Assembly (NCBI GenBank): GCA_051294905.1
Contig: CM119371.1
Coordinates: forward strand, 11,472,001-11,536,000
Reading direction: 5' to 3'
DNA from: Botryllus schlosseri
Lineage: Eukaryota
Length of the DNA stretch: 64,000 nt
Shown here: positions 25,701 to 64,000 of the stretch, in pieces
Position numbering within the stretch: position 1 is the stretch's first letter
Layout of the letters: every line of letters starts with the position of its first letter
Program-made: the position numbers and the translations under genes
Notes under the pieces: model-generated
The model's input: the letters and a program-made list of their open reading frames with translations, nothing else
Databases searched by the model: none
What the model was told of the DNA's origin: nothing

Positions 25701-27335
25701 TCATGGATAGAATAAATTGAGAGATCTGTTTTAGCAACATTACATGTGCGGCATGGCTTATAAGCGCCACCAACACCTTCTTTAAAACCAGCCATTAGTT
25801 GGGAGGCAGGGGTGTCACCAACACAAAACAGAACGTATCCGTGTATAGTTTTTTTATACCATTCACTGTGAGAGTAACACATCTGGCCATTTGTTGCATC
25901 GCCTCAGAAAAATCCTTCAAAAGTTCATTACGAGAAGAAAATTCCTTCAAATCAATAGATTTTGCAATGCATAAGAGCTGAATGCTACCAAGCTGACTAC
26001 GGCATTCGGGTGGAATATTCAGAAGGGACCAGTAAAATGCAGACATTTTATGCTTTTTGCGATGGGCACCGATTGGATTCACAATTTCAAATTCATCATG
26101 ATACAGCGAAAGCAGCAGGCTGTCAGCATTACGATTAAACCCTATATGTGATTCAAGAAATTTTCCTTGTGTGACATCTTTCATTATACCATTTGTACGC
26201 GGTGATTGTGGTGATGGCAAAGTAAGGCTACACAATAACGTTTCAAGCTGCTTGAGAAAAGGAACAAAAAAACCTGTGGCAGGTTTTTCAATCAGCTGGT
26301 TCTTTCCACAATGATATTCATTTGCAAAACGCATTCCTAATACAACTTTTTCATGATTAATTAGGCCAAAATGCTCTCGATAGAATTTGTTTCTACCGGC
26401 TTTAGTTTGTAATAGTTAAAATCCCAATCCCTGTTCTCCCGAATGATAGGATGTACAAGGGCTGTCAATGGTGGTGTTAGTGGTACCTATCAAAGGAGAA
26501 AAATTGCCACCACCATTTGAATTGACTATATCATCAAGTCCTGCATCACTCAATTTATGTAATGTTTACAGTCTCAGCAATAAAGCTGCCATGGGTAAAA
26601 TGGAGGTAAGCTCAGAACAAGGTGTATAACCTGATCCACGAGCAATTTCATTCTGCATGGGTAAAGTAGATGTAAGTTCAGAGCAAGGTGAAGGGCTTGA
26701 TTTCTCAACATTTCCAATTTTGCAATAGGATTCGGGCAGCAGGTCATAGTCAAGAGAGGATGGTGCTTCATAGCAATACAAGTCCAGTGTCTTCATATTT
26801 TTGTGTCTCCTTTTACAATGGCTACGGATATCTTCATATTTTGAATACACTATGCCACAGATCCTGCATGACATGAGAACACTCGGATGTTGATTGTGAC
26901 GCCTCAATAAATGTGTTGACAGCAAATCGGTAGTTCCGATAAAGGGGCACAACCAACACTTTCCATTAGACATAGACATTCTACCGAACCATATCAAGTA
27001 ATTGAAACTGGTCAACTGCAAAGAAAGATGTACGTAACTTAATCTGCAAGTGAGGTTTCATCACTAGGTCTATTATGATATCTTCAGAGGAAGTACTTAA
27101 ACAGCATTAGCTCCCATTTTCATGGTCTGCTCTTATGGCGCATTAAGCTGCTAGATAGAAAATAGATAATCTATATATATACTCATACCGCTGGGCGCTG
27201 GTGCTGTGTGTGAAACTCGAAAACATGAACATGACATTATTTACAGATGATGTTGAAAATTTACATAAACGAATTACCTTGTAGTAAATCAATATGCTCC
27301 CTCTTAATTCCGTTTTGCACTAAAAATATCTCCAT
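4745..27335 (-). CDS. Spliced SAM-domain (SAMD3-like) accessory gene of EnSpm copy B. Exons include 27335-27278, 24142-24042, 14801-~14654, several in 14600-13700, 12296-12192 and 5074-4745
   Basis: Phase-compatible GT-AG junctions give MEIFLVQNGIKREHIDLLQ-ENEIDESVFGTLTEGDLQKLFTVGTARRLL (SAM-like). The last exon has DLVACYYAWDLSYP..FIQRVL. Intactness of the middle exons was not verified. Confidence 0.7.
5757..6274. mobile_element. Kolobok-like MITE at the orthologous position in EnSpm B
   Basis: Reverse-complement counterpart of 1537-2058 with homologous flanks. Confidence 0.7.
7281..7462. mobile_element. Small hAT MITE
   Basis: CAATGTTCCCTC / GAGGGAACATTT termini and 8-bp TSD ATCATGAC. Confidence 0.75.
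8199..9182 (+). pseudogene. Harbinger/HARBI1-like DDE transposase, frameshifted
   Basis: GVPNVIGCIDGTHIPI, RWPGSTHDSRTF and TRVLIEQCFGVLKQRF lie in different frames. The usual GDxGY motif is missing. Confidence 0.9.
9700..11544 (-). pseudogene. Possible convergent spliced second gene of the Harbinger element
   Basis: ATG at 11544 with a GTAAGT donor near 11416, a candidate exon at ~10807-10867 and a charged coiled-coil-like exon at ~9700-9919. No Myb/SANT motif was recognised. Confidence 0.3.
18510..18906 (-). repeat. 3' LTR
   Basis: Direct repeat of 21208-21604; two substitutions seen. Confidence 0.95.
18953..21043 (-). CDS. gag: BEL/Pao Gag (SAP-like N-terminus, coiled coil, DUF1759-like capsid region, three Cys/His knuckles) fused to a truncated aspartic protease
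   Basis: 696-aa intact ORF with PPTFNGDILTFPQFWESF, CAYCSKPHLLKDC, CFRCL..H..C, CTITGCGKTHHKLLH and RIAFDSFSQKSFVT. Confidence 0.9.
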   Translation of the reverse strand: MSFVKSPSESPKSPALAPTWKPLAKMAVDDLRPELQELGEATSGSEAVLTDRLGKIRDSDKSSQKKELQSSPLSTTGSPSELVMIFQMMKHQQDLDRQQHQLDREADRQQQKLDREADRQQQKLDREAANLKFQLQLEELELKHAQDREESERRFQLQLEEIRQKSLEDRLSLREILKDAVKKPGNHPSASIGDSCLPDVIIRKFRRLNAEVVDSLQALENKYEYSTSAEEINVFIRSVEMSMTDLKTFVDSKIDQLDDDDIKTEIIDGKRRSKEIYFVHIPLAKSKSSSLKAAEEAEHAAGSLPSGIVPPTFNGDILTFPQFWESFEPLVHKNPKVSHFYKISYLKAALKGSSSGLLNGFSSTAVNYEPAVNAVLKRYGKKQAIVRNHIEDLLQGEKVEFKIDKVRRLLDAATAKRAILSQYDVSWDQLFTQVLESQLPGTLHERWIRKTSPLIEADEVPDSDLLFEFLTTELATMESLHKSRDGSRSACDKSQHKDERVSCDTEKPDRSFSVQSLVVQSRPLSCAYCSKPHLLKDCFRFVKLTPAQRLADLVLKPGKVCFRCLAPKGHKGHPKHFHQCKERCTITGCGKTHHKLLHVSAEPSINSKCMVATIDVSTSALRDSDSNTLLPAALGRINHNGDGKPVRIAFDSFSQKSFVTRDLGGSLKLSPNKSDCLDISGFGGHSTSIRSSFEVG
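21208..21604 (-). repeat. 5' LTR
   Basis: Direct repeat of 18510-18906. Confidence 0.95.
22487..23540 (-). pseudogene. Remnant of copy C transposase (N- and C-terminal parts; catalytic core deleted)
   Basis: YKEHFGLIEPE..YFVLFMQQLEALL matches B YREHFGLINHE..FFVPFLKQLETLL. FESKFNAFAV matches B FSPTMNAFAV. Confidence 0.75.
24290..27021 (-). pseudogene. CACTA/EnSpm Tnp2-like transposase of copy B with N-terminal C2H2 zinc fingers; frameshifted and interrupted
   Basis: Motifs LYHDEFEIVNPIG, FYWSLLNIPPECRS, GDTPA..GFKE..CRTC, HDVMHILLEG and FGPLRMQCAIRYEAKN are spread over ORFs 26566-27021, 25795-26334, 25073-25882, 24780-25088 and 24287-24646. Two CxxC..HxxxxH fingers at the start. Confidence 0.9.
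24654..24935. mobile_element. Solo LTR (Ty3/gypsy-like) inserted in the B transposase
   Basis: TGTAGCGT..ACGCTATA termini and 4-bp TSD GATG. Excision restores the frame HWMCIQMIDK. Confidence 0.8.
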
Positions 27336-27767
27336 TTCCTCGCTATATGCTACTTAGATTCACGTAACATTGACCGACAGATTCACGATATATCTCACTC
27401 ACTTGTGGAGTGCCACAAGGCTCAGTCCTTGGACCGAATTTTTTCCTCATTTATATTACCGACATTGTTAATGCATCTTTATTCCGCACAACGCTATTTG
27501 CTGATGATACTCACCTTTTCATTACCTCCAACACTGTCGATGATTTGCATGCATCTGTGAATAGGGAACTCCCAAAAGTGTCGAGATGGCTGCAAGCAAA
27601 CAAACTAAGTTTGAATGCAGATAAGACCAGACATTGCTTCATTGATCATTTGCTACCATCGTTTAATTTTTCTTCTATTTTATTTTTTTAACTACTCTAA
27701 CGTTTTTTACAGCCAGACTGCTTAGAGTCAAGTGTACCTGTTTGATGCTGGTGTGATCAGACTAGAT

Positions 27768-30077
27768 CAGTGCTCTTCAACCGGGGTGGTCGTACACCCT
27801 AGGGTGTACCAAAATTTGCAAAGGGTGTACCACTCGGATGGGGTGTACAGGGGTGTACCAGATCCGAATTACAATGACTCGATGGCTTGCTATCACAAAG
27901 GCAGGTTTACGGGTCAGTACAGGTTGACGCACAGGTTGATGAGCAATATGGTACGATGTTATCTCAAGTGTAATGCTGTACACCACTGTGATGTCATAAG
28001 CAAATATTAGCCGTCGGCAATAGACCAATGGTTCCTTTTGGTGTTGGCAAGTATGCAGTTAACAAACATGTGTTTAGCTCAGAGGTCTCAAACTCAAATT
28101 TACTCGCGGGCCAATTTCCTAGTTTTTAAAGACGCCGCGGGCCGCAGCATAAAGGATTGGAATATTCAATGCAGAATTTGAAAATAGGCCTTATTTGACG
28201 GGACCTTGCCGATAGGCATTCCACAAACATCGTGAAAATGTAATTTACTATTGTACTATTCACGCTCGACACGAAAAAATCACATAATTTCCAATGTTTG
28301 AATAAATTGGTTTTGTTGCGGGCATAATTTGTTAGAATAATGAGTTATAGACATCATGCAAGAGGGTGCATCATGAGTCGTAAAACTGTCGGGTTATAAT
28401 ATTTCAGCTAGTGGACTTTTTACGTGCCACAAATTTGATGTAGAATATTTTAAAATCTACTGAAGATGTATCTGATATCAGAGCATTTGAGCAGTGTAGC
28501 CTAATCCGGGTTTTGATATAGTCGTGATAAGTAGGCTATTGTTACTGTCCTTGCCAAAGTCAAATTATATCAGCGTTGGATTTTGCCTTCGCTTAATAAT
28601 TGAACATATCAATAACAAATCTAAATATAGTCATTGACCATAGTAATAGCATTCTTTCTTAACGTTTTTAGAGATCGCACCTCTTGCGCTTCTAATAAGA
28701 TTTCTAGCTTCTGTCCATTTTCAATACAATATTCCAAGTAACCGTTCCGAGTCGCAAGTCCTTCTCTGATTTTAACGTTTGATCTAACTCAACTCGAGTG
28801 ATTTATATTTAATCCTCTCGTCAATCCGAAATCGAGTAATTGTGCGAAAGGGCGGACCAAACCAAACCACAATTTTAGTCGCGAATCATCAACGGGTCAT
28901 GTTTTATCATCATGAACTAGAAATGTGACGTAATAGCTGATCTTCTACCGCATGGTAGTGATGTGATAGTGAAGTTTGTTGAGATTTCAGTGATTTTTAT
29001 AGTAGTTTTAGGGTTAACTTCAAGTTGTTATATCTAAAAAAGATATATGTCACTTAAAGATACTGTCATATACTTGAAATTCCAAAATGCCGTCGCGGGC
29101 CGCAAAAAATGCTCTCGCGGGCCGCGTGTTTGAGACCTCTGGTTTAGCTAGTCATTTGTCTTTTAGTGATTTTTGAGGAAACCGCCGCGATAGCTCAGAC
29201 TTTTTGAATCTGCACTTCCTAGCCGACGGTAATAAATACCGCAATGCACATAAATGAAGTGACGTAGCCACCCAGGGTCGAAAGAGCTTCCATGTTGAAA
29301 TCGAAACCCTTTTGTTTTAAAATGCCGATTGTATGTCCAATATTACGCCGTACATTTGCAATTTAGTATTTTGTTATTAGTGATGTAAATCAGCGACAAC
29401 AGACTGTGTATAGCGGTATACGATCTGAGGTTACTGACATCTCTTGCAGCCCATGTGCTACTATCGACTGTGTGTGGTGTGGAGCAGGCCTGATACGCAG
29501 TAGGCTGGTGCGCCTGCTATCATCGCTGATCTGAATTACCGCTTCTGCAGCAGTAGCTTTACCTACTCTCTCCCCAATACTGTTATATTTAGGTTGATTA
29601 TCGTTCGTAATGTCATGCTGTTTTTGCTCTGACACGAAGTAAATTCCAATTTGCGTGGCGGGGGGCATAACTGGCTGCGAATAGACTCTGTGACCAAATA
29701 CTATTTTATTCAAATCCTAATATTTTGACGGCAATAACTCCGCTTCTACTGGTCGAAATTGAACCAAATTTGAAGAACATCGTTTTTATAGACAACCTAA
29801 TACTTTCATGGGGTGAACAGAAATATTTCAAATTTTTCGTTATTTATTTTTATATAATAAATAGAAACTTTCTTCTTCCGTAGCAAGGCGGCTACTGGTT
29901 GGAATTGAACCAAATTTGGTGTGTAGGCTTAAGTTAGGTAACCTAACAATTTTATCAAGTAGCCAGTACGATTTGAGAAAAAAAGTCATTTTTGCAGACC
30001 CCTAATGAACAGGGGTGTACGAGTTTTGAGCAAACGTTAAAAGGGTGTACCACGTCGAAAAAGGTTGAAGAGCACTG
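27768..30077. mobile_element. hAT MITE with nested insertions
   Basis: TIRs CAGTGCTCTTCAACC / GGTTGAAGAGCACTG and TSD GACTAGAT. Confidence 0.9.
28080..29141. mobile_element. hAT (Buster/Charlie-like) MITE, intact
   Basis: TIRs CAGAGGTCTCAAAC and TSD GTTTAGCT. A partial further copy lies at ~17833-18270. Confidence 0.9.
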
Positions 30078-40766: not shown

Positions 40767-41737
40767 CAGTGTTGGGATGACTCGAGTCATGACTTGACTC
40801 GAGTCAGACTCGAGTCACCTTTTTCGTATGACTTGACTTGACTCGAGTCACTTTGCTAAAATGACTTGACTTGACTTGACTTGACTCGGCGTATCAGAAA
40901 AACGGATTGACTCGTGACTCGGAGCAAAATTCACGAGTCAATTTCGAGTCATCAAGCAATCGACATCGATAAAAATCATTGTGTCTTGCATATGTTCGGA
41001 TTGTACGCGAAACGCTGGTGTAGCCCGTGAAAGCGACCAATCATTCAATGGTCGTGCTTTTTACTGGAACCTCCATTATTCTCACACATATAAATTGATC
41101 GGAAACGAAGTGATCGAAGCTTACAGCTTACGCTGTTGTACACTAGTATAGTAAAGTAATTTGATAGCAAAATGTCTATTTCTGTTCTCTGTTCTTAACT
41201 TAACCAAACCTCTTGTTTTATTGAAATTGAATTCCAATATAGTTTCTATAGTCCTCAGCCATTAGCGCAGGCCCGAATTTTATCATATCAATCTGTAACT
41301 GGGTAATGTATTGTTTCTCTATTCTCGATTTTGGCTGGTAACTATAATCCGAGGCTATGCTACTACTTATGTAGTTTAGCATTTCTACGTATATGTGAGC
41401 AATAAAGCGTCTTCTTGCGTTTATATTTAACTCTATATTCGTTCATGAGTCCAGAATCAATGACCACCCAATCTTTATTTCTGACAGCTAGCAAAATGCA
41501 ATGACGTAAGCATGCCTTGTACTTCGAAAAGGCAACTTGACTTGAATTATGACTTGACTCGTGACTTGACTTGACTTGACTTGACTCGACTTGACTAGAG
41601 TCACCTCCAAAAATCGAGTGACTTGACTTGACTCGAGTCACCTTCGAAAATCGATTGACTTGACTTGACTCGAGTCAAAATGTGCAATGACTCGAAATGA
41701 CTCGTGACTCGAAGGTAGTGACTTGATCCAAACACTG
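40767..41737. mobile_element. hAT MITE with GACTT/GACTC subterminal arrays
   Basis: CAGTGTTGGGAT / ATCCAAACACTG termini and TSD CTTTCTAC. Partial copies at ~12478-13045 and ~21827-21952. Confidence 0.9.
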
Positions 41738-47496: not shown

Positions 47497-50400
47497 ACGT
47501 ACAGGGTTGTAACCAAATCACATGGTTCCGAGTCACGAGTCAATCTTACTTTTGTGGCTTTGACTCGAGTCAAGTCGAGTCACTTTCAATTCATCGTCGA
47601 GTCCGAGTCCAAGTCATCGTTTAAAGGGTCAGGTCCGAGTCATAGTGTTATGACTAGGGCCATTTAAAGTCATTAAATTCATATTTTTTTCTATGCATCA
47701 GTAAGTCGTGAAATCAATTTTAACGCGAAAACCACGTCCCTATGGGTTATATTAAGAAAGTTATAAAGTCATATAAAGTCATATTTTCTTGGTTATGTCA
47801 TATTTGAGTTATAAAGTCATATTGTTGTATACTTTAAATAAAAAGTGCCAATTTAAGCGGTGAAGCAATTAAGCACTAAAGCACTAAGAAAGTAGGGCAA
47901 TTTCTGATTGAACGAAGGCAAGCTTTAAGGTTAGCCTACATAGCACCACAGTCACAGACCTATGAGGTCACACATTGCATTGTGTTGCTATACAATCTGT
48001 TGTACTTCTGTGCACTGAAGTAGGACGTCATTTGAAGTTCAGTCAGTGGGTAGACAGGCTAACAGGCACTATCTTGGTCTACTTATATACAAATACATTC
48101 GGATTTGAATAAAATAGTATTTACGGTGGGCACTGCTATAATAAATAATTGAAGAATTGGTCACCGAAATATGCCTCCACTACAACAATATTTCAAACTT
48201 GATACTGAAAATGGAAAGTTGTAAGTACACCATCAGAGAGGCTAATGCTGATCTAAATGCCCTTGATTTCAGAAAAAAAATCCGCTTGAGCTGAAAAATT
48301 TTATTTAACCGTTTCGCACCGGCGTGTCTATTTTTCGACATGCCGGTACGAGAGAAGAGTACCGTAATTGAAACCACGATATATTACATATTAATCGTTC
48401 TAGGTCGTTGCTGTTCATTTCTGTGAATAGATATTGTTCGTACAAGTTCATTGATACCTTGTAATTTGATATTTATTATATCGAAGACGTCAAAATCGTA
48501 TATCAAACGCCGTAGATAAATATGTTGCAAAATACACTGTGTCGGCAATTTGCGCGTCATTGACCACTCTCATATAACGTTCTGTATGTTTCGTTCTAGC
48601 CGTCTTCGGGCATAGTTGTTTCATTATGTGAATAGCTAGTGTCCATACAAGTCCACACGTATCTTCATATCTGATATTAGTTACACCTAAGCTGATCAAA
48701 AGCTATGTGATAGGCCGCGTGACAAAAATATCCGCCGACGCATCATTTCGCAGACACGCGCGTTCCTCATACCCGCCATATACACTGTCGTTTAGTTGGT
48801 TTTATTCGTCATAACCAGCTGTAGTTTGTTGCAATGAATAGCGATTGTCAGTTTCTGTTTATATTTTGCTAAAGCAACTATACTAGTTAGTTCTATACCG
48901 CTCAAGGTTTCATTTGAAAACCGGGAAGCGAATTCCGTCAGACTACCGTACCAGCTTCAAGCACATGGCTGAATACCCGTCACATACCGTGAAATATATC
49001 GTGTTCTGATAGCCATAAACATTCATAGATTGTGTCTGTGAATTGTTGTAGCCTATATGATTCTAAATAACGGCTAATGATAAAGTATAATTCGGAATAC
49101 ATACAATATTACTCAGCGATAATACCTACGCAAAAGCGTGCGTCAGTAGTGAGGGTTTCGACCTTATAGACCGTCCAATCAGAGAGCGCCACGTCATCCT
49201 AATTGCCACACCCATTTTCATGCCCTGAGGGTACATTCATCTGCTACGTCATCTGTGCCACATCATCAAGCGCCACGCCTATAGTGCCACATCATCCATC
49301 CATTGCTATATCATCGCTGCATTGATTGCCGCATCTTGATACTTTTCTCAGATATTGTATTATGTGTATTTAGGACTAATATCATCCGTCCATATTTTTT
49401 AAACTTTATTTTATGTGTACAAGTTACGGTTTCTGCAGTTTCCACATTTTACGACTTATGATTGCCGCGTCAAATCTTACCTTGGCTAGAATCGACAGAT
49501 TTTCTATTATGTGTATTTAGGACTATGTATTTAAATTCCTATTCAGATTATACATAAATGCGAAAACTATGATGTCTATGCAAGGCTATATTCTCCGGAT
49601 AATATTATTAATATCAAAATTCTACACATCATCACTAATTACTTAATATAAAATGCGATTTTGAGCGCTGCGACTTGATAATATGAATCCCTACGCTTCT
49701 GATGCATGATTTTTTGTGATAAGGACCTAGGTAACATTCAGAGTCTGCAACGATTGTTTGGATATACATTATAGCAATACCCCACTAAACTATAGGCGGT
49801 TATATTACTCTATTGGTCAGAGATAACTCATCCGTCCATATTTTTAAACTTGATTTTATGTATACAAGTTACGGTCTCTGCAGCCTCCACATTTTACGAC
49901 TTATTTTCATTAGACGCAGGCAAGCGATTCTCCAGTTCGTAGCTACGGAAACAAATCACTCGCATGTGCGCGTTCCGAATAGTCTTGTAGAATTTTCTAA
50001 AGTCGTAACAGCTTAGCAGCAATACGCGAATCCCCAGGCGAAAATAATCGAACGAACTATAGCCGCAGGCGTGCGATTCGCGGGGCTTTAATTATATAAA
50101 CACTTTCGATACCTGTACGCGAACCCCAGCGTTATAACGATTAGGTCTAATTAGCACGTTCTGAAGCCGTAAATTTAGTCAACATCATTGAGATAGCCAT
50201 GAATTAAAGATGGTAATCGAGTGTGACAATAGCACTCGTCAAGGTTAGACAAACATAACCTTAAACTACTCTCTACTTCACAAAATATAAAGTTATAAAA
50301 GTAAGCAGATTTCTATGAAAACCCGTTATCGTTACGTAGAAGTGGGGTTAGTCTACGAACATAACCACTTACTTACTTTGAAATCTCTACTTGTATTCGA

Positions 50401-51197
50401 GCGGAATTGCGACCGATGCATTAATGACTTTAATACTCTATATTTTAAATTATCATCGCAAAGTGCACGAATTTCCATGTTGATCAAATAATACGAACTT
50501 TGCTTGCTTTCAGAGTAGAGCTTTGTAAAGTAGATCTTTTTGGTGTTGGACTCAAGTTCCAATGAACAAGTGTTCACGTAGCTTCGAGGTCTGAATGAGT
50601 CTTTTAAAGTAGATAAAAACGACAAAAACTAACCGAAAGAATTTACGAAGTTTGGATGCGCCATATTTAGGTTTTTAAAAATTATTCATACCCATGATTC
50701 GAAATATTGTTAACTAACTTATGTTTTCGACATAAGATAAGCGTCAAGTGTACAAATTTCGATGTTGCGCAAATACCACAAACTTTGCTTGCTTTCAGAG
50801 CCGGCAACTAAATGCAAGACAGACTTTACGCAAAAAGTTGATATTCTGAACATTTTATCAAGTTAATAGTTTAAAAACTTATACTTGAGCACTACGAAAT
50901 GTACAAGTACTTTACCTTTACACGACGTTTTTTGTAAAATGAATACTAATTTTATTAAGAAAACTATGGGAATGAGGTATTAGAAAATACCAATTCGAGA
51001 GGTTCTCTACTAGATAGTGCATAGCTTTCTCCATCGCCTATACCTGATGCTGTCGGATAAGTTTATGACACTGACACCTCTCATCCAGAGCAATGAAAAA
51101 AGTACATTCCAACATTTTATTATCACTAAATTTCTACTAAAGTACAGGAAGTGCAGATCTCCAACAAGTGAAAAAGTACGTATTAAAGGTATAGTTT

Positions 51198-51428
51198 GCC
51201 AGATAACTGAAAATAATAAATAAAATTAAAAAATTAAAAAGCGCGAAATATTACATTTTATCCCGGAACGCAACAAGAAAAATCGTATGAGTTTTGTAAA
51301 GTAAATAGAAAACTATGCCTGATAACTGAAAATAATAAAAAATAAAATTAAAAAGCGCGAAAATTACATTTTATCCCGGAACGCAACACGAAAAATCGTA
51401 TGACTTTTTTAAAGTAGAAAGAAAACTA
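51198..51428 (+). repeat. Tandem duplication, 2 x ~115 bp (mirrored at 61561-61791)
   Basis: GATAACTGAAAATAATAAA...TTATCCCGGAACGCAAC occurs twice. Confidence 0.85.
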
Positions 51429-52756
51429 CACTATTCCGATGCACTAAAGACTTTCACACTCCGGATTTTGTATAGTATATAATAATTTTACATTGCGGGG
51501 TATTCAGTAAACTTTAATCCAGTGATCCTCCGTCTATTTTCAATCACGCTCCTCTTATTAGTATAGGTTTCGAACCACACATCCAGTACGTTTTATGGGG
51601 ATTAATATTTTTAGACTCAAATACATTTCCAATGTACCAAAGTCTTACAGTACAGATTTTGTAGAGTAGTTAGAAAACTACCTTTTGAGTCGATAGCGAA
51701 GTACTTGCTCATTTTAGAGTACTCAAGTATTGGTTTGGCCTTGGTAGCAATGTACTCAATCAAGTGATTATCTATTTACAGCGCACTAAAAATTTACTGA
51801 TACTAAAATGTTAAAATGTACTTTTTCAATGCCCTCGATGAGCAGCGCCAGTTTCAACTATATCCTATCATGCATTTTCGCGCTGCAGAATGACTTATCG
51901 CAACGAAAAATAGCAAAAATACATCGAGAATCTGCAAACTCTCACTGCGAAATATTTGACTTTTGCGAATTATCCTTCAAAGTGAGCTTACATATTGGAT
52001 ATTATCAAAACCCTCTCCATATCGAAATAATTGTACATTTGGAGTACTTAAGTATAGGTTTTGCCTGCTTGCGCTATACTTAATCAAGTGATTATCTATT
52101 TAGACTTCATCTACTTCTATTTATATTTCAGAGTTTTCAGTTATCAGACAAATAATACATTCAATACTTACTTTTTTACTCGCTCGGAAATCAGCACTTC
52201 ATGTACTTCAGAAGAAATTTACTGGTAATAGAATGTTGAAATGTACTTTTCCATTGGCCTTGATGAGCGGGCCCAGTTTCATCTATATTGTACAATGCAT
52301 TTTCACACTTCAGAATGACTTATCGCAATGAAAAATAGCACAAATACATCGAGAATTCTCGAACCATCACTATACGATAATTGAGTTTTACAAATTACCC
52401 GTCAAAGTGAACCTACATGTTGGGTATTATCCAAAACCTCGTGGAATTTTGCTCCGAGCGACAAATCCTTTGAATTAAGGTGGAAGTACCTATTTCCGAC
52501 TAAGTAAAACGTCAGTATTCCAGGTCTATTTCTGCTCAATTCTGAAACTATAACGGATTTGAAGCAGTACAATATCATAAACACTTGAGAGTATTTGTTG
52601 CATGTAGGCAAAAAACGTACTTGAGTACTCGGAAGAAGTCAATGCTTACTTGTTTAGCCGCTCGGACATCGTCACTTCTTGTACTTTAATGGAAATTTAC
52701 TGCTGATAAATGAGTAATCGACTTTACTCGATATTCGCGTACCATGAAACTGAAGA

Positions 52757-53182
52757 ATGAATAGACGCGTTTTCAAACTATAGAATGATATAGTCTCTGC
52801 AAAATGTTTTTGATATCACGATAACTTTTTACATGAATGGTCACGTATCCTAATATTCAAATAACCCAACACAGAGCTCGTACTTACAGGAATATCGTAG
52901 TTCTTGTAACAAAGTTGTATGTGCACAATATATATTTAAGGTAAGTCCTACAATTCATGATTTCGTCCGATGAATAGACGCGTTTTCAAACTATAGAATG
53001 ATATAGTCTCTGCAAAATGTTTTTGATATCAAGATAACTTTTTACATGAATGGTCACGTATCCTAATATTCAAATAACCCAACACAGAGCTCGTACTTAC
53101 AGGAATATCGTAGTTCTTGTAACAAAGTTGTATGTGCACAATATATGTTTAAGGTAAGTCCTACACTTCATGATTTCGTCCG
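52757..53182 (+). repeat. Tandem duplication, 2 x 213 bp (mirrored at 59807-60232)
   Basis: ATGAATAGACGCGTTTTCAAAC begins at both 52757 and 52970. Confidence 0.9.
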
Positions 53183-56100
53183 AGTTTGTATTTTAGAAAA
53201 TATTATACAACAATTTACTTTACTAACGAGAAGTGTCGAGTTATCGAATGATTTTCCCTTCCGTCAAAACAAATAGAATGTGAAACTATATTGCTAACGT
53301 TTCTAACCCTTTGCACACCAGTGGTAAATCACACAAGCAACAAGTTTCGAGAATCGAGTTATTGAATAACGTGAAAGCGTTTTTCCAGTGTCAAGTCGTT
53401 ATGTTGATTAAAGCGTTTATTTTAATACCCCGAAGTGAGACTTCGAAACTATCGTCAGTTCTCCAAGAGCAAATATCGTGCTCTACAAGTGTTAAGTTGT
53501 TGTATTATGTAGCTGGTAATTGATGCACGTAAGCCAAGCATCGAACCAACTTGTGTTAACTTGCGTTATTATGTACCTAGTAATTGGTGCGAGTAATCCC
53601 GCAACTGCTGCTGTTCAATGGCTTTACCGCGTTCTTACCAAGTACCTTAATAAGGATAGACAGCCCCAAGCAGATAATGTAAGTATGTATGTATTTATGA
53701 ATGATGGGTCTTATGGTGCTTGATGATAGAAGCTGGTCTTCTATTCTATATTCCGAAATAATCAAGCTGGTGGTTTTACCAGCAGCGCGCCACATAGAAA
53801 CTTTAGTAGAATCACTTATTATAACTCCTCACGTTCACTCAAGTAAATCTAATTTGATACTCGAGTACTGAACCTTAATTTTCCAGCAGTGTGATAAACG
53901 CCGTCAGATGGTACTCAACATCGCGCAATTCCGCTCGAATACAAGTAAAAGTACAGATTTCGAAGTAAGTAAGTACGTGAGTAACTGGTTATGTTTGTAG
54001 ACTATATCTCCACTTCTATCGTTCAGAGATGTTGCGCAGAGAAGTACATGTATTTCTTCAAAGTACTCAAGTGATTTTTTTGCCTACATGCACCAACTAC
54101 TCAAGTGTTTATGATATAGGCCTGCTTCAAATTCAAGACAGTTTCAGTATTAAACAAAAATGGACCTTGAATATTAACTTTTACAATGTGAAATTTTATA
54201 TGCATAAACTAAGAAACGTCACTTTTACAATCGTTCGGTATGATTTCTATATTATTCCACTCTCGTTATTGGACCGCGGTGTGACGCCGAGCTATATCTC
54301 GATGCCTAGGCTTCCGCATTTATTGTTTTTTCGATTTATTCTGCCCTATGTAGATTTAACATAAGGAAGGTTATTTCACTCATAAAATTCGGAATACGTA
54401 TTTGCTCGAGTTAAAGCCATAACGTTTGGAGTGAAATTTTACGTGGTTTTCGTTGATATCCAACTGGGCTAATTTCGAAATGTAAATTGAAAAACTCAAA
54501 TATCGCATAGTAGGACTTCCCAAATTTTCGGTATATTTTTACTATTTTTTCACGTTGATGATAAGTCGTTCAGGACAGCGAAATGCATTATAGGAAATAG
54601 ATGAAACTGGTACAATTCATCGAGACCCCTGAAAAAAAAAGTACATTTCATTTCAACATTTTATTAGCAGGTAATCGAAATACCACAAACTGTGCTAACC
54701 TTTGGAGTTGTTAAGTAAAGAAGTACTCGTACTTTTTCAGAGTATACCAAGTAGGTTTTTTGCCTACATGCACCAAATACTCTCAAGTCCTTATGATATC
54801 GGAGTGCTTCAACTTCATGATAATTATAGTATTAAGCAGAAATATATCTGGAGTACTAACGTTTTACTTACTCGGAAATGACTACTTCTATCTTATTTTG
54901 AAGGATTCCTCGCTCGACGCGTAATTTTATGAGGTTTTGAATAATATCCAACATATAGGCTCACTTTGAAGGGTACTTCGTAAAACTCAAATATTGCACA
55001 GTGAGAGTTCGCAAACTCTAGATGTATTTTCGGTATTTTTATTGCGGTAAGTCATTCTGCGGCGCGATAATGCATCGTAGGATATAGATGAAACTGACAC
55101 CGCTCACCAAGGCCACTGAAAAGAAGTACATTTCAACATTTTAGTAGCAGTAAATTCCTAGTAAAGGACAAGAAGTGATGATTTCCGAGTGAGGTAAAAA
55201 GTAAGTATTGAAGGTATAGTTTGCTCGAAAAACCGACAACTCTGAAATAGAAGTAGATGCAGTGTAAATAGTTAATCACTTGATTAAGTATAGCGCAAGC
55301 AGGCCAAACCTATACTTGAGTACTCCAAAATGTGCAAGTACTTCGCTATCGACTCACTCCACGTAAAAAGTGACTTGGTTTTAGAGTACTTTATCAGTTC
55401 TTGACAGTTTCAGTTTTAGACAAAATTTGGAATAAAAAACTAGCTCATTCACCCATTCGGAAATCTTTTCTTTAACCTGTACTTGAGTGTAGCAAGTAAA
55501 TCTCATTTATTATTAATTCTACATGTACTTGTACACTTGACCATGTGGTATGACTTACATAATGACTTTTCGCTATATTTGAAGTCTGTCAAATAGCAGT
55601 ATATGTTACGGTGAGCTTCTATTCGTTCTGTATGATCATCTTGACTAACGATATTCATTCGACGAGCTCTTCAGTGATAGTCCTGGGACTTGGAACAGTG
55701 TTATATGACATCATAGCGATACGAAGTTACGACAGTTTAAAATTATCTACCAGGACACCAAATTTCGTTAGTTCATCTCCACCTTCAAATATCGTGTTAT
55801 ACAAATATTGTGTATACGGGATAAATACATATATGGCTATGTTGTTGCAATCTTCAAAAAAGTACCTCCCTCAGTAAGCAATTGCTCGTAGGCTATGCAT
55901 ACACATGAGGACAGTTACATTAACGAGTGGTAACTTGTTGTATTATGTAGCTAGTAATTAGTGCAAGTAAGTCCGCAACTACTGTTCAAGGCCTTTTCCT
56001 CGTTTTTACCAAGCATCCTCGTAAGGATAGACAGCCCCAATCAGCTAATGTAAGTGTGTACTGTGTATGTAGGCCTATGTATGAGGGGTCTTATGCCGCT

Positions 56101-56872
56101 TGACAAATGAAGTTGAACATTCCCGCGCGCGTCTTAGGATTAGGTGGTAGGGTTAGAAAAAATTAGGTTTATGAGCGCGCGGGAATGTTTTTTATGCTTG
56201 TACAACTCAAATACCCATCGGTCTGCTTACTACATTTTAAAGATTCTCTCCGCTATTGTGTATACAAGAATATACTTCTCTTAGTAACCAATTTCTCGTG
56301 AATTCCGAACCACATTGACGTGTGTTAACTTCTGGTATTAGGTGATAATATCATTTTCATGTCTGATAATGCCACTTGTCAAGGTGATACAAACGTAAGT
56401 TCAAGCTACTTTAATGTTAATTCATTCAATTAGCTTGTGTTTATCATGAAATTACTTGGATTATGCTGAGTTTCGCTATTAAAAAACACTGCAACATGAT
56501 TGAATTAATCAAACACAGCGCAAATAATTACAAATCGCCTGCAGTAGGTATTCTTTTATGATATACGAAGGCGGATGACACGATTATCTTATAATACTCT
56601 AGTAATTCATTTATTTATCTTGTGTTAATTATGAAATCACTTGGCTCACGCTGTAAATTACACTGCAACGTGAAAAGTTATTATATTTATTCTCATAAGT
56701 TAGAGCTAAATTTGAACTCGTTGGAAAAATAAGATTCAGTATGCCTACTTGATTATCAAATTAGATTTACTTGAGTAAACGTGAGGAGTTATAAGTTATT
56801 CTACTGGAGTTTCTACGAGGTGAGGTCCTGTCAAAAACCACTAACTTGATTATTTCGGAATAGAATAGACGA

Positions 56873-59800
56873 TCAACTTCATTTGTCAAGCGGCATAAGA
56901 CCCCTCATACATAGGCCTACATACACAGTACACACTTACATTAGCTGATTGGGGCTGTCTATCCTTACGAGGATGCTTGGTAAAAACGAGGAAAAGGCCT
57001 TGAACAGTAGTTGCGGACTTACTTGCACTAATTACTAGCTACAAAATACAACAAGTTACCACTCGTTAATGTAACTGTCCTCATATGTATGCATAGCCTA
57101 CGAGCAATTGCTTACTGAGGGAGGTACTTTTTTGAAGATTGCAACAACATAGCCATATATGTATTTATCCCGTATACACAATATTTGTATAACACGATAT
57201 TTGAAGGTGGAGATGAACTAACGAAATTTGGTGTCCTGGTAGATAATTTTAAACTGTCGTAACTTCGTATCGGTATGATGTCATATAACACTGTTCCAAG
57301 TCCCAGGACTATCACTGAAGAGCTCGTCGAATGAATATCGTTAGTCAAGATGATCATACAGAACGAATAGAAGCTCACCGTAACATATACTGCTATTTGA
57401 CAGACTTCAAATATAGCGAAAAGTCATTATGTAAGTCATACCACATGGTCAAGTGTACAAGTACATGTAGAATTAATAATAAATGAGATTTACTTGCTAC
57501 ACTCAAGTACAGGTTAAAGAAAAGATTTCCGAATGGGTGAATGAGCTAGTTTTTTATTCCAAATTTTGTCTAAAACTGAAACTGTCAAGAACTGATAAAG
57601 TACTCTAAAACCAAGTCACTTTTTACGTGGAGTGAGTCGATAGCGAAGTACTTGCACATTTTGGAGTACTCAAGTATAGGTTTGGCCTGCTTGTGCTATA
57701 CTTAATCAAGTGATTAACTATTTACACTGCATCTACTTCTATTTCAGAGTTGTCGGTTTTTCGAGCAAACTATACCTTCAATACTTACTTTTTACCTCAC
57801 TCGGAAATCATCACTTCTTGTCCTTTACTAGGAATTTACTGCTACTAAAATGTTGAAATGTACTTCTTTTCAGTGGCCTTGGTGAGCGGTGTCAGTTTCA
57901 TCTATATCCTACGATGCATTATCGCGCCGCAGAATGACTTACCGCAATAAAAATACCGAAAATACATCGAGAGTTTGCGAACTCTCACTGTGCAATATTT
58001 GAGTTTTACGAAGTACCCTTCAAAGTGAGCCTATATGTTGGATATTATTCAAAACCTCATAAAATTACGCGTCGAGCGAGGAATCCTTCAAAATAAGATA
58101 GAAGTAGTCATTTCCGAGTAAGTAAAACGTTAGTACTCCAGATATATTTCTGCTTAATACTATAATTATCATGAAGTTGAAGCACTCCGATATCATAAGG
58201 ACTTGAGAGTATTTGGTGCATGTAGGCAAAAAACCTACTTGGTATACTCTGAAAAAGTACGAGTACTTCTTTACTTAACAACTCCAAAGGTTAGCACAGT
58301 TTGTGGTATTTCGATTACCTGCTAATAAAATGTTGAAATGAAATGTACTTTTTTTTTCAGGGGTCTCGATGAATTGTACCAGTTTCATCTATTTCCTATA
58401 ATGCATTTCGCTGTCCTGAACGACTTATCATCAACGTGAAAAAATAGTAAAAATATACCGAAAATTTGGGAAGTCCTACTATGCGATATTTGAGTTTTTC
58501 AATTTACATTTCGAAATTAGCCCAGTTGGATATCAACGAAAACCACGTAAAATTTCACTCCAAACGTTATGGCTTTAACTCGAGCAAATACGTATTCCGA
58601 ATTTTATGAGTGAAATAACCTTCCTTATGTTAAATCTACATAGGGCAGAATAAATCGAAAAAACAATAAATGCGGAAGCCTAGGCATCGAGATATAGCTC
58701 GGCGTCACACCGCGGTCCAATAACGAGAGTGGAATAATATAGAAATCATACCGAACGATTGTAAAAGTGACGTTTCTTAGTTTATGCATATAAAATTTCA
58801 CATTGTAAAAGTTAATATTCAAGGTCCATTTTTGTTTAATACTGAAACTGTCTTGAATTTGAAGCAGGCCTATATCATAAACACTTGAGTAGTTGGTGCA
58901 TGTAGGAAAAAAAATCACTTGAGTACTTTGAAGAAATACATGTACTTCTCTGCGCAACATCTCTGAACGATAGAAGTGGAGATATAGTCTACAAACATAA
59001 CCAGTTACTCACGTACTTACTTACTTCGAAATCTGTACTTTTACTTGTATTCGAGCGGAATTGCGCGATGTTGAGTACCATCTGACGGCGTTTATCACAC
59101 TGCTGGAAAATTAAGGTTCAGTACTCGAGTATCAAATTAGATTTACTTGAGTGAACGTGAGGAGTTATAATAAGTGATTCTACTAAAGTTTCTATGTGGC
59201 GCGCTGCTGGTAAAACCACCAGCTTGATTATTTCGGAATATAGAATAGAAGACCAGCTTCTATCATCAAGCACCATAAGACCCATCATTCATAAATACAT
59301 ACATACTTACATTATCTGCTTGGGGCTGTCTATCCTTATTAAGGTACTTGGTAAGAACGCGGTAAAGCCATTGAACAGCAGCAGTTGCGGGATTACTCGC
59401 ACCAATTACTAGGTACATAATAACGCAAGTTAACACAAGTTGGTTCGATGCTTGGCTTACGTGCATCAATTACCAGCTACATAATACAACAACTTAACAC
59501 TTGTAGAGCACGATATTTGCTCTTGGAGAACTGACGATAGTTTCGAAGTCTCACTTCGGGGTATTAAAATATACGCTTTAATCAACATAACGACTTGACA
59601 CTGGAAAAACGCTTTCACGTCATTCAATAACTCGATTCTCGAAACTTGTTGCTTGTGTGATTTACCACTGGTGTGCAAAGGGTTAGAAACGTTAGCAATA
59701 TAGTTTCACATTCTATTTGTTTTGACGGAAGGGAAAATCATTCGATAACTCGACACTTCTCGTTAGTAAAGTAAATTGTTGTATAATATTTTCTAAAATA

Positions 59801-62800
59801 CAAACTCGGACGAAATCATGAAGTGTAGGACTTACCTTAAACATATATTGTGCACATACAACTTTGTTACAAGAACTACGATATTCCTGTAAGTACGAGC
59901 TCTGTGTTGGGTTATTTGAATATTAGGATACGTGACCATTCATGTAAAAAGTTATCTTGATATCAAAAACATTTTGCAGAGACTATATCATTCTATAGTT
60001 TGAAAACGCGTCTATTCATCGGACGAAATCATGAATTGTAGGACTTACCTTAAATATATATTGTGCACATACAACTTTGTTACAAGAACTACGATATTCC
60101 TGTAAGTACGAGCTCTGTGTTGGGTTATTTGAATATTAGGATACGTGACCATTCATGTAAAAAGTTATCGTGATATCAAAAACATTTTGCAGAGACTATA
60201 TCATTCTATAGTTTGAAAACGCGTCTATTCATTCTTCAGTTTCATGGTACGCGAATATCGAGTAAAGTCGATTACTCATTTATCAGCAGTAAATTTCTAT
60301 TAAAGTACAAGAAGTGACGATGTCCGAGCGGCTAAACAAGTAAGCATTGACTTCTTCCGAGTACTCAAGTACGTTTTTTGCCTACATGCAACAAATACTC
60401 TCAAGTGTTTATGATATTGTACTGCTTCAAATCCGTTATAGTTTCAGAATTGAGCAGAAATAGACCTGGAATACTGACGTTTTACTTAGTCGGAAATAGG
60501 TACTTCCACCTTAATTCAAAGGATTTGTCGCTCGGAGCAAAATTCCACGAGGTTTTGGATAATACCCAACATGTAGGTTCACTTTGACGGGTAATTTGTA
60601 AAACTCAATTATCGTATAGTGATGGTTCGAGAATTCTCGATGTATTTGTGCTATTTTTCATTGCGATAAGTCATTCTGAAGTGTGAAAATGCATTGTACA
60701 ATATAGATGAAACTGGGCCCGCTAATCAAGGCCAATGGAAAAGTACATTTCAACATTCTATTACCAGTAAATTTCTTCTGAAGTACATGAAGTGCTGATT
60801 TCCGAGCGAGTAAAAAAGTAAGTATTGAATGTATTATTTGTCTGATAACTGAAAACTCTGAAATATAAATAGAAGTAGATGAAGTCTAAATAGATAATCA
60901 CTTGATTAAGTATAGCGCAAGCAGGCAAAACCTATACTTAAGTACTCCAAATGTACAATTATTTCGATATGGAGAAGGTTTTGATAATATCCAATATGTA
61001 AGCTCACTTTGAAGGATAATTCGCAAAAGTCAAATATTTCGCAGTGAGAGTTTGCAGATTCTCGATGTATTTTTGCTATTTTTCGTTGCGATAAGTCATT
61101 CTGCAGCGCGAAAATGCATGATAGGATATAGTTGAAACTGGCGCTGCTCATCGAGGGCATTGAAAAAGTACATTTTAACATTTTAGTATCAGTAAATTTT
61201 TAGTGCGCTGTAAATAGATAATCACTTGATTGAGTACATTGCTACCAAGGCCAAACCAATACTTGAGTACTCTAAAATGAGCAAGTACTTCGCTATCGAC
61301 TCAAAAGGTAGTTTTCTAACTACTCTACAAAATCTGTACTGTAAGACTTTGGTACATTGGAAATGTATTTGAGTCTAAAAATATTAATCCCCATAAAACG
61401 TACTGGATGTGTGGTTCGAAACCTATACTAATAAGAGGAGCGTGATTGAAAATAGACGGAGGATCACTGGATTAAAGTTTACTGAATACCCCGCAATGTA
61501 AAATTATTATATACTATACAAAATCCGGAGTGTGAAAGTCTTTAGTGCATCGGAATAGTGTAGTTTTCTTTCTACTTTAAAAAAGTCATACGATTTTTCG
61601 TGTTGCGTTCCGGGATAAAATGTAATTTTCGCGCTTTTTAATTTTATTTTTTATTATTTTCAGTTATCAGGCATAGTTTTCTATTTACTTTACAAAACTC
61701 ATACGATTTTTCTTGTTGCGTTCCGGGATAAAATGTAATATTTCGCGCTTTTTAATTTTTTAATTTTATTTATTATTTTCAGTTATCTGGCAAACTATAC
61801 CTTTAATACGTACTTTTTCACTTGTTGGAGATCTGCACTTCCTGTACTTTAGTAGAAATTTAGTGATAATAAAATGTTGGAATGTACTTTTTTCATTGCT
61901 CTGGATGAGAGGTGTCAGTGTCATAAACTTATCCGACAGCATCAGGTATAGGCGATGGAGAAAGCTATGCACTATCTAGTAGAGAACCTCTCGAATTGGT
62001 ATTTTCTAATACCTCATTCCCATAGTTTTCTTAATAAAATTAGTATTCATTTTACAAAAAACGTCGTGTAAAGGTAAAGTACTTGTACATTTCGTAGTGC
62101 TCAAGTATAAGTTTTTAAACTATTAACTTGATAAAATGTTCAGAATATCAACTTTTTGCGTAAAGTCTGTCTTGCATTTAGTTGCCGGCTCTGAAAGCAA
62201 GCAAAGTTTGTGGTATTTGCGCAACATCGAAATTTGTACACTTGACGCTTATCTTATGTCGAAAACATAAGTTAGTTAACAATATTTCGAATCATGGGTA
62301 TGAATAATTTTTAAAAACCTAAATATGGCGCATCCAAACTTCGTAAATTCTTTCGGTTAGTTTTTGTCGTTTTTATCTACTTTAAAAGACTCATTCAGAC
62401 CTCGAAGCTACGTGAACACTTGTTCATTGGAACTTGAGTCCAACACCAAAAAGATCTACTTTACAAAGCTCTACTCTGAAAGCAAGCAAAGTTCGTATTA
62501 TTTGATCAACATGGAAATTCGTGCACTTTGCGATGATAATTTAAAATATAGAGTATTAAAGTCATTAATGCATCGGTCGCAATTCCGCTCGAATACAAGT
62601 AGAGATTTCAAAGTAAGTAAGTGGTTATGTTCGTAGACTAACCCCACTTCTACGTAACGATAACGGGTTTTCATAGAAATCTGCTTACTTTTATAACTTT
62701 ATATTTTGTGAAGTAGAGAGTAGTTTAAGGTTATGTTTGTCTAACCTTGACGAGTGCTATTGTCACACTCGATTACCATCTTTAATTCATGGCTATCTCA

Positions 62801-63844
62801 ATGATGTTGACTAAATTTACGGCTTCAGAACGTGCTAATTAGACCTAATCGTTATAACGCTGGGGTTCGCGTACAGGTATCGAAAGTGTTTATATAATTA
62901 AAGCCCCGCGAATCGCACGCCTGCGGCTATAGTTCGTTCGATTATTTTCGCCTGGGGATTCGCGTATTGCTGCTAAGCTGTTACGACTTTAGAAAATTCT
63001 ACAAGACTATTCGGAACGCGCACATGCGAGTGATTTGTTTCCGTAGCTACGAACTGGAGAATCGCTTGCCTGCGTCTAATGAAAATAAGTCGTAAAATGT
63101 GGAGGCTGCAGAGACCGTAACTTGTATACATAAAATCAAGTTTAAAAATATGGACGGATGAGTTATCTCTGACCAATAGAGTAATATAACCGCCTATAGT
63201 TTAGTGGGGTATTGCTATAATGTATATCCAAACAATCGTTGCAGACTCTGAATGTTACCTAGGTCCTTATCACAAAAAATCATGCATCAGAAGCGTAGGG
63301 ATTCATATTATCAAGTCGCAGCGCTCAAAATCGCATTTTATATTAAGTAATTAGTGATGATGTGTAGAATTTTGATATTAATAATATTATCCGGAGAATA
63401 TAGCCTTGCATAGACATCATAGTTTTCGCATTTATGTATAATCTGAATAGGAATTTAAATACATAGTCCTAAATACACATAATAGAAAATCTGTCGATTC
63501 TAGCCAAGGTAAGATTTGACGCGGCAATCATAAGTCGTAAAATGTGGAAACTGCAGAAACCGTAACTTGTACACATAAAATAAAGTTTAAAAAATATGGA
63601 CGGATGATATTAGTCCTAAATACACATAATACAATATCTGAGAAAAGTATCAAGATGCGGCAATCAATGCAGCGATGATATAGCAATGGATGGATGATGT
63701 GGCACTATAGGCGTGGCGCTTGATGATGTGGCACAGATGACGTAGCAGATGAATGTACCCTCAGGGCATGAAAATGGGTGTGGCAATTAGGATGACGTGG
63801 CGCTCTCTGATTGGACGGTCTATAAGGTCGATACCCTCACTACT
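56873..63844 (-). repeat. Right arm of the giant inverted repeat
   Basis: Reverse complement of 49145-56116 with scattered substitutions and no net indel. Confidence 0.97.
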
Positions 63845-64000
63845 TGCGTCTGGGTATACAAAGAGCTGTCGTACATCGATATATATCTTACGTTGTAGTA
63901 ATGATAAGCATTTGCAGTAAATCATTATGGTAAGGACTGTAAATATCCGTCTACGAACACTAAAATGACTAATATGGGGTCACAACAGTTTGAGTTATAA

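Follow-up and report, generated by a model that had tools for sequence, protein, structure and literature searches.

A gene-less, almost fully palindromic element with Maverick-type ends in Botryllus schlosseri, possibly formed by a single hairpin fold-back

Introduction

Mavericks, also known as Polintons, are believed to multiply as free, protein-primed linear DNA molecules and may form virions as well, a stage of their life cycle that has hardly been observed. They are generally 15-20 kb long, with 6-bp target-site duplications, terminal inverted repeats (TIRs) of 100-1,000 bp, and a terminal tandem repeat of 1-3 bp (PMC4196379); the definition given in PMC5499653 has them encode both a polymerase and an integrase. 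Here, we describe an element of 14,700 bp that combines Maverick-type ends and a 6-bp duplication with an almost fully palindromic body devoid of detectable genes. It lies in a 64,000-nt stretch of the Botryllus schlosseri genome (assembly GCA_051294905.1, contig CM119371.1, positions 11,472,001 to 11,536,000 of the forward strand), hereafter the window, from whose first base all coordinates are counted.

A survey of vertebrate Mavericks serves as reference: its intact elements measure 12,723-24,620 bp (mean 16,862), their TIRs span 46-1,447 bp, and their ends bear conserved 6-nt motifs, most often 5'-(AGT)2//(ACT)2-3' with perfect 6-bp duplications (PMC8097293). In the supplementary table of that survey, the string AGTAGT is present 713 times, and a column for 5' motifs contains it. 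The survey also relates the end repeats to jumping-back during protein-primed replication and takes a size of ~17 kb, varying by plus or minus 10%, to mean that genome size is constrained (PMC8097293). The precedent for the former is adenovirus, with a trinucleotide repeated twice, priming on the inner copy, and a subsequent jump back (PMC5175343). A second point of reference is furnished by snap-back defective viral genomes, for which PMC13506859 describes one end duplicated in inverted form around a short unique loop, a lack of coding capacity, and two ends that both serve as origins.

Satellites of Mavericks are barely described in the searchable literature, where the only use of the term "non-autonomous polinton" is for Tlr1; Repbase may hold further non-autonomous Polinton entries. 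A survey of lizards noted an apparent absence of non-autonomous Polintons (PMC3014272), and the longest Maverick TIRs met in the literature searched, at about 2 kb, themselves carry genes (bioRxiv 10.1101/2025.02.07.637071). In that literature, we met no account of a gene-less Maverick that is palindromic or has giant TIRs.

Overall structure and ends of the element

An inverted-repeat finder recovered two arms of 6,972 nt each, separated by 756 nt (Table 1). In a gapless comparison, the arms are mismatched at 12 of the 6,972 positions (99.83% identity) with no indel, all differences being substitutions (five transitions and seven transversions); the pairing stops at the inner arm ends, with an inward extension of 0. 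The preliminary description of this stretch had reported arms of this length with about a dozen substitutions and no indel, a 756-bp spacer, AGTAGT and ACTACT ends, and flanking TGCGTC, all of which we recovered as described. Its coordinates (49139-63850) take in both 6-bp duplications; the element proper spans 49145-63844, and the arms make up 13,944 bp (95%) of it.

The termini read AGTAGT at the left and ACTACT at the right (63839-63844), and a perfect TGCGTC stands directly outside each of them. Since the bases beyond TGCGTC are unlike on the two sides, the duplication is exactly 6 bp long; a 6-base match at a boundary fixed in advance by the repeat has an arithmetic chance of 1 in 4,096. 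The terminal 29-mer has two matches in the window, one at each end of the element, and none in 100 shuffles. Outside TGCGTC, the flanks are non-complementary to each other and single-copy within the window. The G+C content is 35.7% in the arm, 34.0% in the spacer, and 40.2% in the flank.

The arm mismatches are unevenly spread, with 11 of the 12 falling within the inner 4.1 kb and a mismatch-free run of 2,856 nt adjoining the terminus (P = 0.023 in 100,000 simulations). By our own count of their positions against the repeat map, seven of the 12 fall within segments that are repeated internally, and two others lie within 60 nt of such a segment. As the mismatches thus cluster in or near repeats, they may reflect inter-repeat conversion or polishing errors rather than age. 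The sole arm difference in the outer 2.87 kb is a T versus A at base 13 from the ends (49157 and 63832), a position within the presumed origin region.

Chimeric long reads are known to yield long, nearly perfect palindromes, and a chimeric fold-back read or a mis-join is a conceivable origin of this one; the polishing errors likely at the repeat-associated mismatches would suit such an origin. Yet the 756-nt spacer is unique, the right flank is no mirror of the left, the perfect 6-bp duplication sits exactly at the arm ends, and the arms differ by substitutions without indels. None of these features would be produced by a fold-back read, and we consider an assembly artefact very improbable.

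Coding capacity and assignment to the Mavericks

Ten stop-to-stop frames of at least 70 amino acids overlap the left arm and spacer. The longest has 127 amino acids (53981-54364), which exceeds the ceiling of ~111 given in the preliminary description. No protein family was detected in the element. The statement in that description that no open reading frame resembles the protein-primed polymerase (pPolB), integrase, ATPase, or capsid is supported by a Pfam scan in which none of the 46 frames of at least 45 amino acids reached the cut-off. It had also proposed a translated profile search for decayed Polinton genes; run on the six whole read-through frames of the element, with X at stops, this search returned sub-threshold noise alone, none of the six reaching the Pfam cut-off. 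The best sub-threshold match, to a P-element helix-turn-helix domain (17.5 bits versus a cut-off of 23), falls inside a 213-nt tandem repeat. Thus, the protein-primed family B polymerase and retrovirus-like integrase by which Polintons/Mavericks are recognized were not detected in the element with Pfam. Nor were capsid, packaging ATPase, or protease genes, in a Pfam-only search that fast-evolving capsid genes could escape.

The AGTAGT and ACTACT ends together with the 6-bp duplication place the element with the Mavericks: its terminal microrepeat starts with AG, and the (AGT)2//(ACT)2 pair matches the hallmark published for vertebrate elements (PMC8097293), as the earlier assignment of the termini had it. 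With neither polymerase nor integrase, it is not an autonomous member and at most a non-autonomous derivative. Its TIRs, at 6,972 bp, lie far outside the 46-1,447 bp range that the survey gives for the Mavericks it covers (PMC8097293).

Other superfamilies were tried and rejected. IS3EU, named as an alternative in the preliminary description, has TA..TA termini, and GingerRoot has TA..TA or TG..CA (PMC10045372), neither of which fits the AG..CT ends found here. Ginger2 has TGTNR termini and RTATAY targets (PMC2836005), in contrast to AG..CT ends at TGCGTC. A retrotransposon with long terminal repeats (LTRs) does not fit either, in that the repeats are inverted, not direct, and the ends are AG..CT, not TG..CA. 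Dada inserts into multicopy small-RNA genes, and no Rfam family reaches the gathering score anywhere in the window.

A further possibility is that the element is a foldback-type cut-and-paste transposon of another or undescribed superfamily, in which long repetitive TIRs would be normal and the Maverick-like ends coincidental. The tandem and dispersed repeats in the arms do recall those that PMC3573991 describes for Foldback and Galileo, and the absence of Maverick genes by Pfam is in keeping with such an assignment. However, the 6-bp duplication and the (AGT)2//(ACT)2 ends fit the Maverick definition base for base, a given end would read AGTAGT by chance in 1 of 4,096 cases (arithmetic), and the ends of IS3EU, GingerRoot, and Ginger2 do not match. 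Foldback makes duplications of 9 bp and Galileo of 7 bp, and the ends of both differ from AG..CT. Moreover, the truncated repeat unit at the left border, described below, traces the long arms to a single rearrangement rather than to the design of a family. We therefore regard a foldback-type transposon as improbable.

Two terminal/subterminal patterns had no matches in metagenome and viral contig collections, which do not cover the host genome. Of 24 sequencing runs listed for the stretch, with 12 studies involved, 20 contain part of it and two contain at least half of its words. These counts measure neither copy number nor host range or habitat, and none of the runs listed as containing it is of RNA.

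The native border, the rearrangement joint, and the abutting hairpin

The two borders of the spacer are not equivalent. A 338-nt repeat within the left arm, here termed unit V, served as the reference copy for telling a native from a novel border. A complete copy of unit V runs unbroken over the border between spacer and right arm (56872/56873): unit V and the reverse complement of 56722-57067 form a single alignment with 77% identity over 354 columns. The mirror copy in the left arm breaks off at 56116. Since unit V is intact across 56872/56873, that border is native and represents original sequence; with this border native and unit V truncated at 56116/56117, the latter is the rearrangement joint. 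Thus, one terminus and its adjoining sequence have been duplicated in inverted form, leaving one native and one novel border, as in a snap-back defective genome.

The joint coincides to the base with a hairpin (56116-56189), the first base of which is the innermost base of the left arm. It folds with -19.8 kcal/mol (z = -4.15), and none of 200 shuffles folds as well. Defining a perfect hairpin as one with a stem of at least 11 bp and a loop of at most 120 nt, we found it to be the only one in the 7,728 nt of unique sequence (49145-56872), compared to 20 in the 49-kb flank. The chance of the joint meeting the sole hairpin is less than about 1 in 1,000, by an arithmetic estimate judged after the fact. 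Apart from a single possible base, the joint shows no microhomology. The distinction between native and novel borders and the hairpin at the joint are new relative to the preliminary description. From this anatomy, we infer that a stall or break at the hairpin base started the rearrangement. A composite of two complete elements was considered and rejected, as the inner arm ends are unlike the termini and a truncated repeat unit stands at the left one. In the hairpin loop (56131-56174), several TTAGG-like units together with one TAGGGTTAG recall telomere repeats, which may be due to chance.

Table 1. Features of the palindromic element, in window coordinates
Feature	Coordinates	Strand	Basis
Left target-site duplication, TGCGTC	49139..49144	.	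Sequence at boundary, arm comparison
Terminal (AGT)2 microrepeat, Maverick-type end motif	49145..49150	+	Sequence; PMC8097293
Left arm, 6,972 nt, non-coding; putative copied arm	49145..56116	+	Repeat finder, arm comparison, Pfam
Cluster of subterminal motifs: GCCAC, five copies on one strand; ACGTCATC, two copies; CCACATCATC, two copies	49188..49296	+	Motif count in first 150 nt
Tandem repeat in left arm, 113 nt, two copies	51197-51428		
Tandem repeat in left arm, 213 nt, two copies	52757-53183		
Repeat unit V, 338 nt, reference copy	53548..53885	+	
Hairpin abutting the joint, 15-bp stem (67% G+C), 44-nt loop	56116..56189	+	Folding, hairpin scan
Unique spacer, 756 nt, continuous with right arm in progenitor	56117..56872	.	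Repeat finder, unit V alignment
Complete copy of unit V across spacer/right-arm border	56722..57067	-	Alignment
Right arm, 6,972 nt, ending in ACTACT; putative template arm	56873..63844	-	Repeat finder, arm comparison
Right target-site duplication, TGCGTC	63845..63850	.	Sequence at boundary, arm comparison

Models for the origin of the palindrome

Our tentative account, which we hold at somewhat less than even confidence, is that a non-autonomous Maverick-type element was made palindromic by one hairpin fold-back, most likely on a linear replicating copy, and then integrated whole. Such an element would keep the cis-acting ends alone, namely the (AGT)2 microrepeat for jumping-back and the subterminal motif cluster, whose motifs are candidate binding sites for replication or integration proteins. 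A helper Maverick would supply the polymerase/terminal protein and the retroviral-type integrase that makes the 6-bp duplication. The progenitor would have been linear, gene-less, and at least 7,728 bp long measured from one terminus. The 7.7 kb of unique sequence, which is without a Maverick gene trace and full of nested repeats, argues against direct descent from an autonomous Maverick and for a progenitor that was already gene-less; this was not the wreck of a Maverick gene set but either an already gene-less element or a long accessory region colonized by small repeats. On a free, extrachromosomal linear copy, synthesis from the terminus would have proceeded inward through the arm and the 756-nt stretch, stalled or broken at the base of the G+C-rich hairpin, and resumed on the same arm as template, 756 nt back, running out to the terminus; tail-to-tail joining of two broken copies would be an alternative to the template switch. 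The resulting molecule, 14.7 kb long and with the same functional end on both sides, would then have inserted whole at TGCGTC. That the copied arm stops precisely at the element end would follow in a single step from run-off at a free terminus.

The main rival, which we judge unlikely, is an inverted-repeat expansion at the chromosomal site, such that the palindromic form never moved. Here, an ordinary non-autonomous Maverick-type element with modest TIRs would first have inserted at TGCGTC; after a break or stalled fork at the hairpin, the right arm would have been copied inward from the inverted TIR and joined to the broken end, with the left interior of the element replaced by a mirror copy. 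This yields the native and novel borders and the hairpin at the joint equally well, homology between the TIRs would account for a copy that stops at the terminus and leaves the duplication intact, and arms full of nested repeats are what one expects of long-resident chromosomal DNA. That no second palindrome was found in the metagenome and viral collections also agrees with a form that never moved, although those collections do not include the host genome. On the other hand, the expansion needs several steps: the entire left interior must be lost, over 6 kb must be synthesized in repair, and ends must be joined without microhomology. The fold-back on a linear copy is preferred because it needs fewer steps.

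Several observations weigh against this preferred account. First, the uneven spread of the arm mismatches is left unexplained by a fold-back. Second, although the hairpin marks the joint, the center of symmetry falls outside its loop, by which we rejected the hairpin itself as the self-primer of the copy-back. Third, the nested repeats of the arm are typical of DNA long resident in a chromosome. Fourth, neither a helper Maverick nor a sibling copy, an unrearranged progenitor, or an empty site was seen in the sequence analyzed, and no Maverick gene is present among 99 Pfam-scanned frames of at least 75 amino acids in the other 49 kb of the window. Finally, the survey from which the end motif is taken (PMC8097293) is a vertebrate one, while the host is probably an invertebrate: the CpG observed/expected ratio is 0.99 in the flank (1-49138, 40% G+C) and 1.17 in the arm, and this lack of CpG depletion argues against a heavily methylated vertebrate-type genome.

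A more specific version of the fold-back on a linear copy, possible in our view though doubtful, would make the element an integrated snap-back genome, akin to defective-interfering genomes, of a Maverick/polintovirus satellite. Here, an error in free, protein-primed linear replication would have doubled a half-size gene-less element to near full genome length before a helper integrase inserted it.

Internal repeats and genomic neighborhood

Besides the tandem repeats (Table 1), the left arm contains at least five whole or partial copies, in both orientations, of a ~625-nt repeat (51065-52639 and 54040-55356), all mirrored in the right arm. Whole copies occupy 52016-52639 and, inverted, 54731-55352 (81% identity), and partial ones lie at 51065-51213, 51686-52012, 54040-54184, and 54435-54674; the repeat bears imperfect inverted ends of its own of ~85 nt. 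No look-alike of arm or spacer, this repeat included, is present in the other 49 kb of the window, so it is either specific to this element lineage or very locally clustered.

The window as a whole is transposon-rich, and a host gene is not evident in it. The Pfam matches in its other 49 kb are a BEL/Pao-type gag, a remnant of a Plavaka/KDZ transposase, two DDE_Tnp_4 fragments, and one RVT_1 fragment. The gag belongs to a short LTR element (18509-21557) with identical direct repeats of at least 351 nt at 18509-18859 and 21207-21557, between which lies one intact minus-strand frame of 704 amino acids (DUF1759, BEL/Pao type) and no pol gene; it looks like a young, gag-only, non-autonomous retroelement. 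Look-alikes of this gag protein span several animal phyla. Three adjoining minus-strand frames of 276, 206, and 163 amino acids at 25073-27057, the first of which matches the Plavaka (KDZ-type) transposase, are probably a frameshifted transposase gene. The DDE_Tnp_4 fragments, of PIF/Harbinger type, occupy two overlapping frames at 8675-9179, and the reverse transcriptase fragment lies at 27374-27688.

Further, the flank contains five hairpins sharing the palindromic core TGACTCGAGTCA (2166-2234, 5189-5237, 12537-12587, 40778-40850, and 41628-41678), which are probably the ends of a family of small inverted-repeat elements. A dispersed repeat of several hundred nucleotides is present in three copies (6989-7625, 17835-18283, and 28085-28533), ~10.2-10.8 kb apart and with 61-87% identity.

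Implications

A gene-less element whose ends are perfectly those of a Maverick would demonstrate that Mavericks have satellites mobilized in trans. Further, a copy-back palindrome is a typical error of linear, end-primed replication, and an integrated example would lend indirect support to such a stage and to a constraint on size. If the element is indeed a snap-back genome, it would be evidence from nature for extrachromosomal replication of Mavericks as linear molecules in the manner of adenovirus, and would suggest that their gene-less satellites are under a length (packaging) constraint. Even under a chromosomal expansion, the locus would offer a clean, datable 7-kb inverted duplication started at a hairpin. 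Long double-stranded RNA could potentially arise from the palindrome, too.

Comparison with known systems

The element shares with Polintons/Mavericks the 6-bp duplication, the 5'-(AGT)2//(ACT)2-3' ends, the presence of TIRs, and a length that falls within the 12,723-24,620 bp reported for intact vertebrate elements (PMC8097293). It differs from them in having, by Pfam, no protein-primed polymerase, integrase, capsid proteins, ATPase, or protease. Its TIRs are ~5 times as long as the 1,447 bp given as the upper bound in the vertebrate survey (PMC8097293) and ~3.5 times as long as the ~2-kb, gene-bearing TIRs reported in butterflies (bioRxiv 10.1101/2025.02.07.637071).

With snap-back defective genomes, the element has in common the inverted duplicated end, the short unique loop, the lack of coding capacity, and two ends that could both act as replication origins. 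Such genomes, however, are known from infected cells, where they occur free or packaged and mostly belong to RNA viruses, whereas the element is chromosomal, is bounded by a target-site duplication, and is no fragment of a recognizable viral genome. Among DNA viruses, the DNA of adenovirus incomplete particles reportedly carries long inverted repeats.

IS3EU/GingerRoot and Ginger2 resemble the element in their 6-bp duplications, made by an integrase-like DDE enzyme (PMC10045372, PMC2836005), and depart from it in their TA..TA, TG..CA, or TGTNR termini and, for Ginger2, RTATAY targets, as against AG..CT at TGCGTC. Finally, the Foldback and Galileo elements of Drosophila, as described in PMC3573991, likewise have very long, internally repetitive inverted arms with little or no coding capacity; unlike theirs, the long arms of the present element stem from one identifiable rearrangement.

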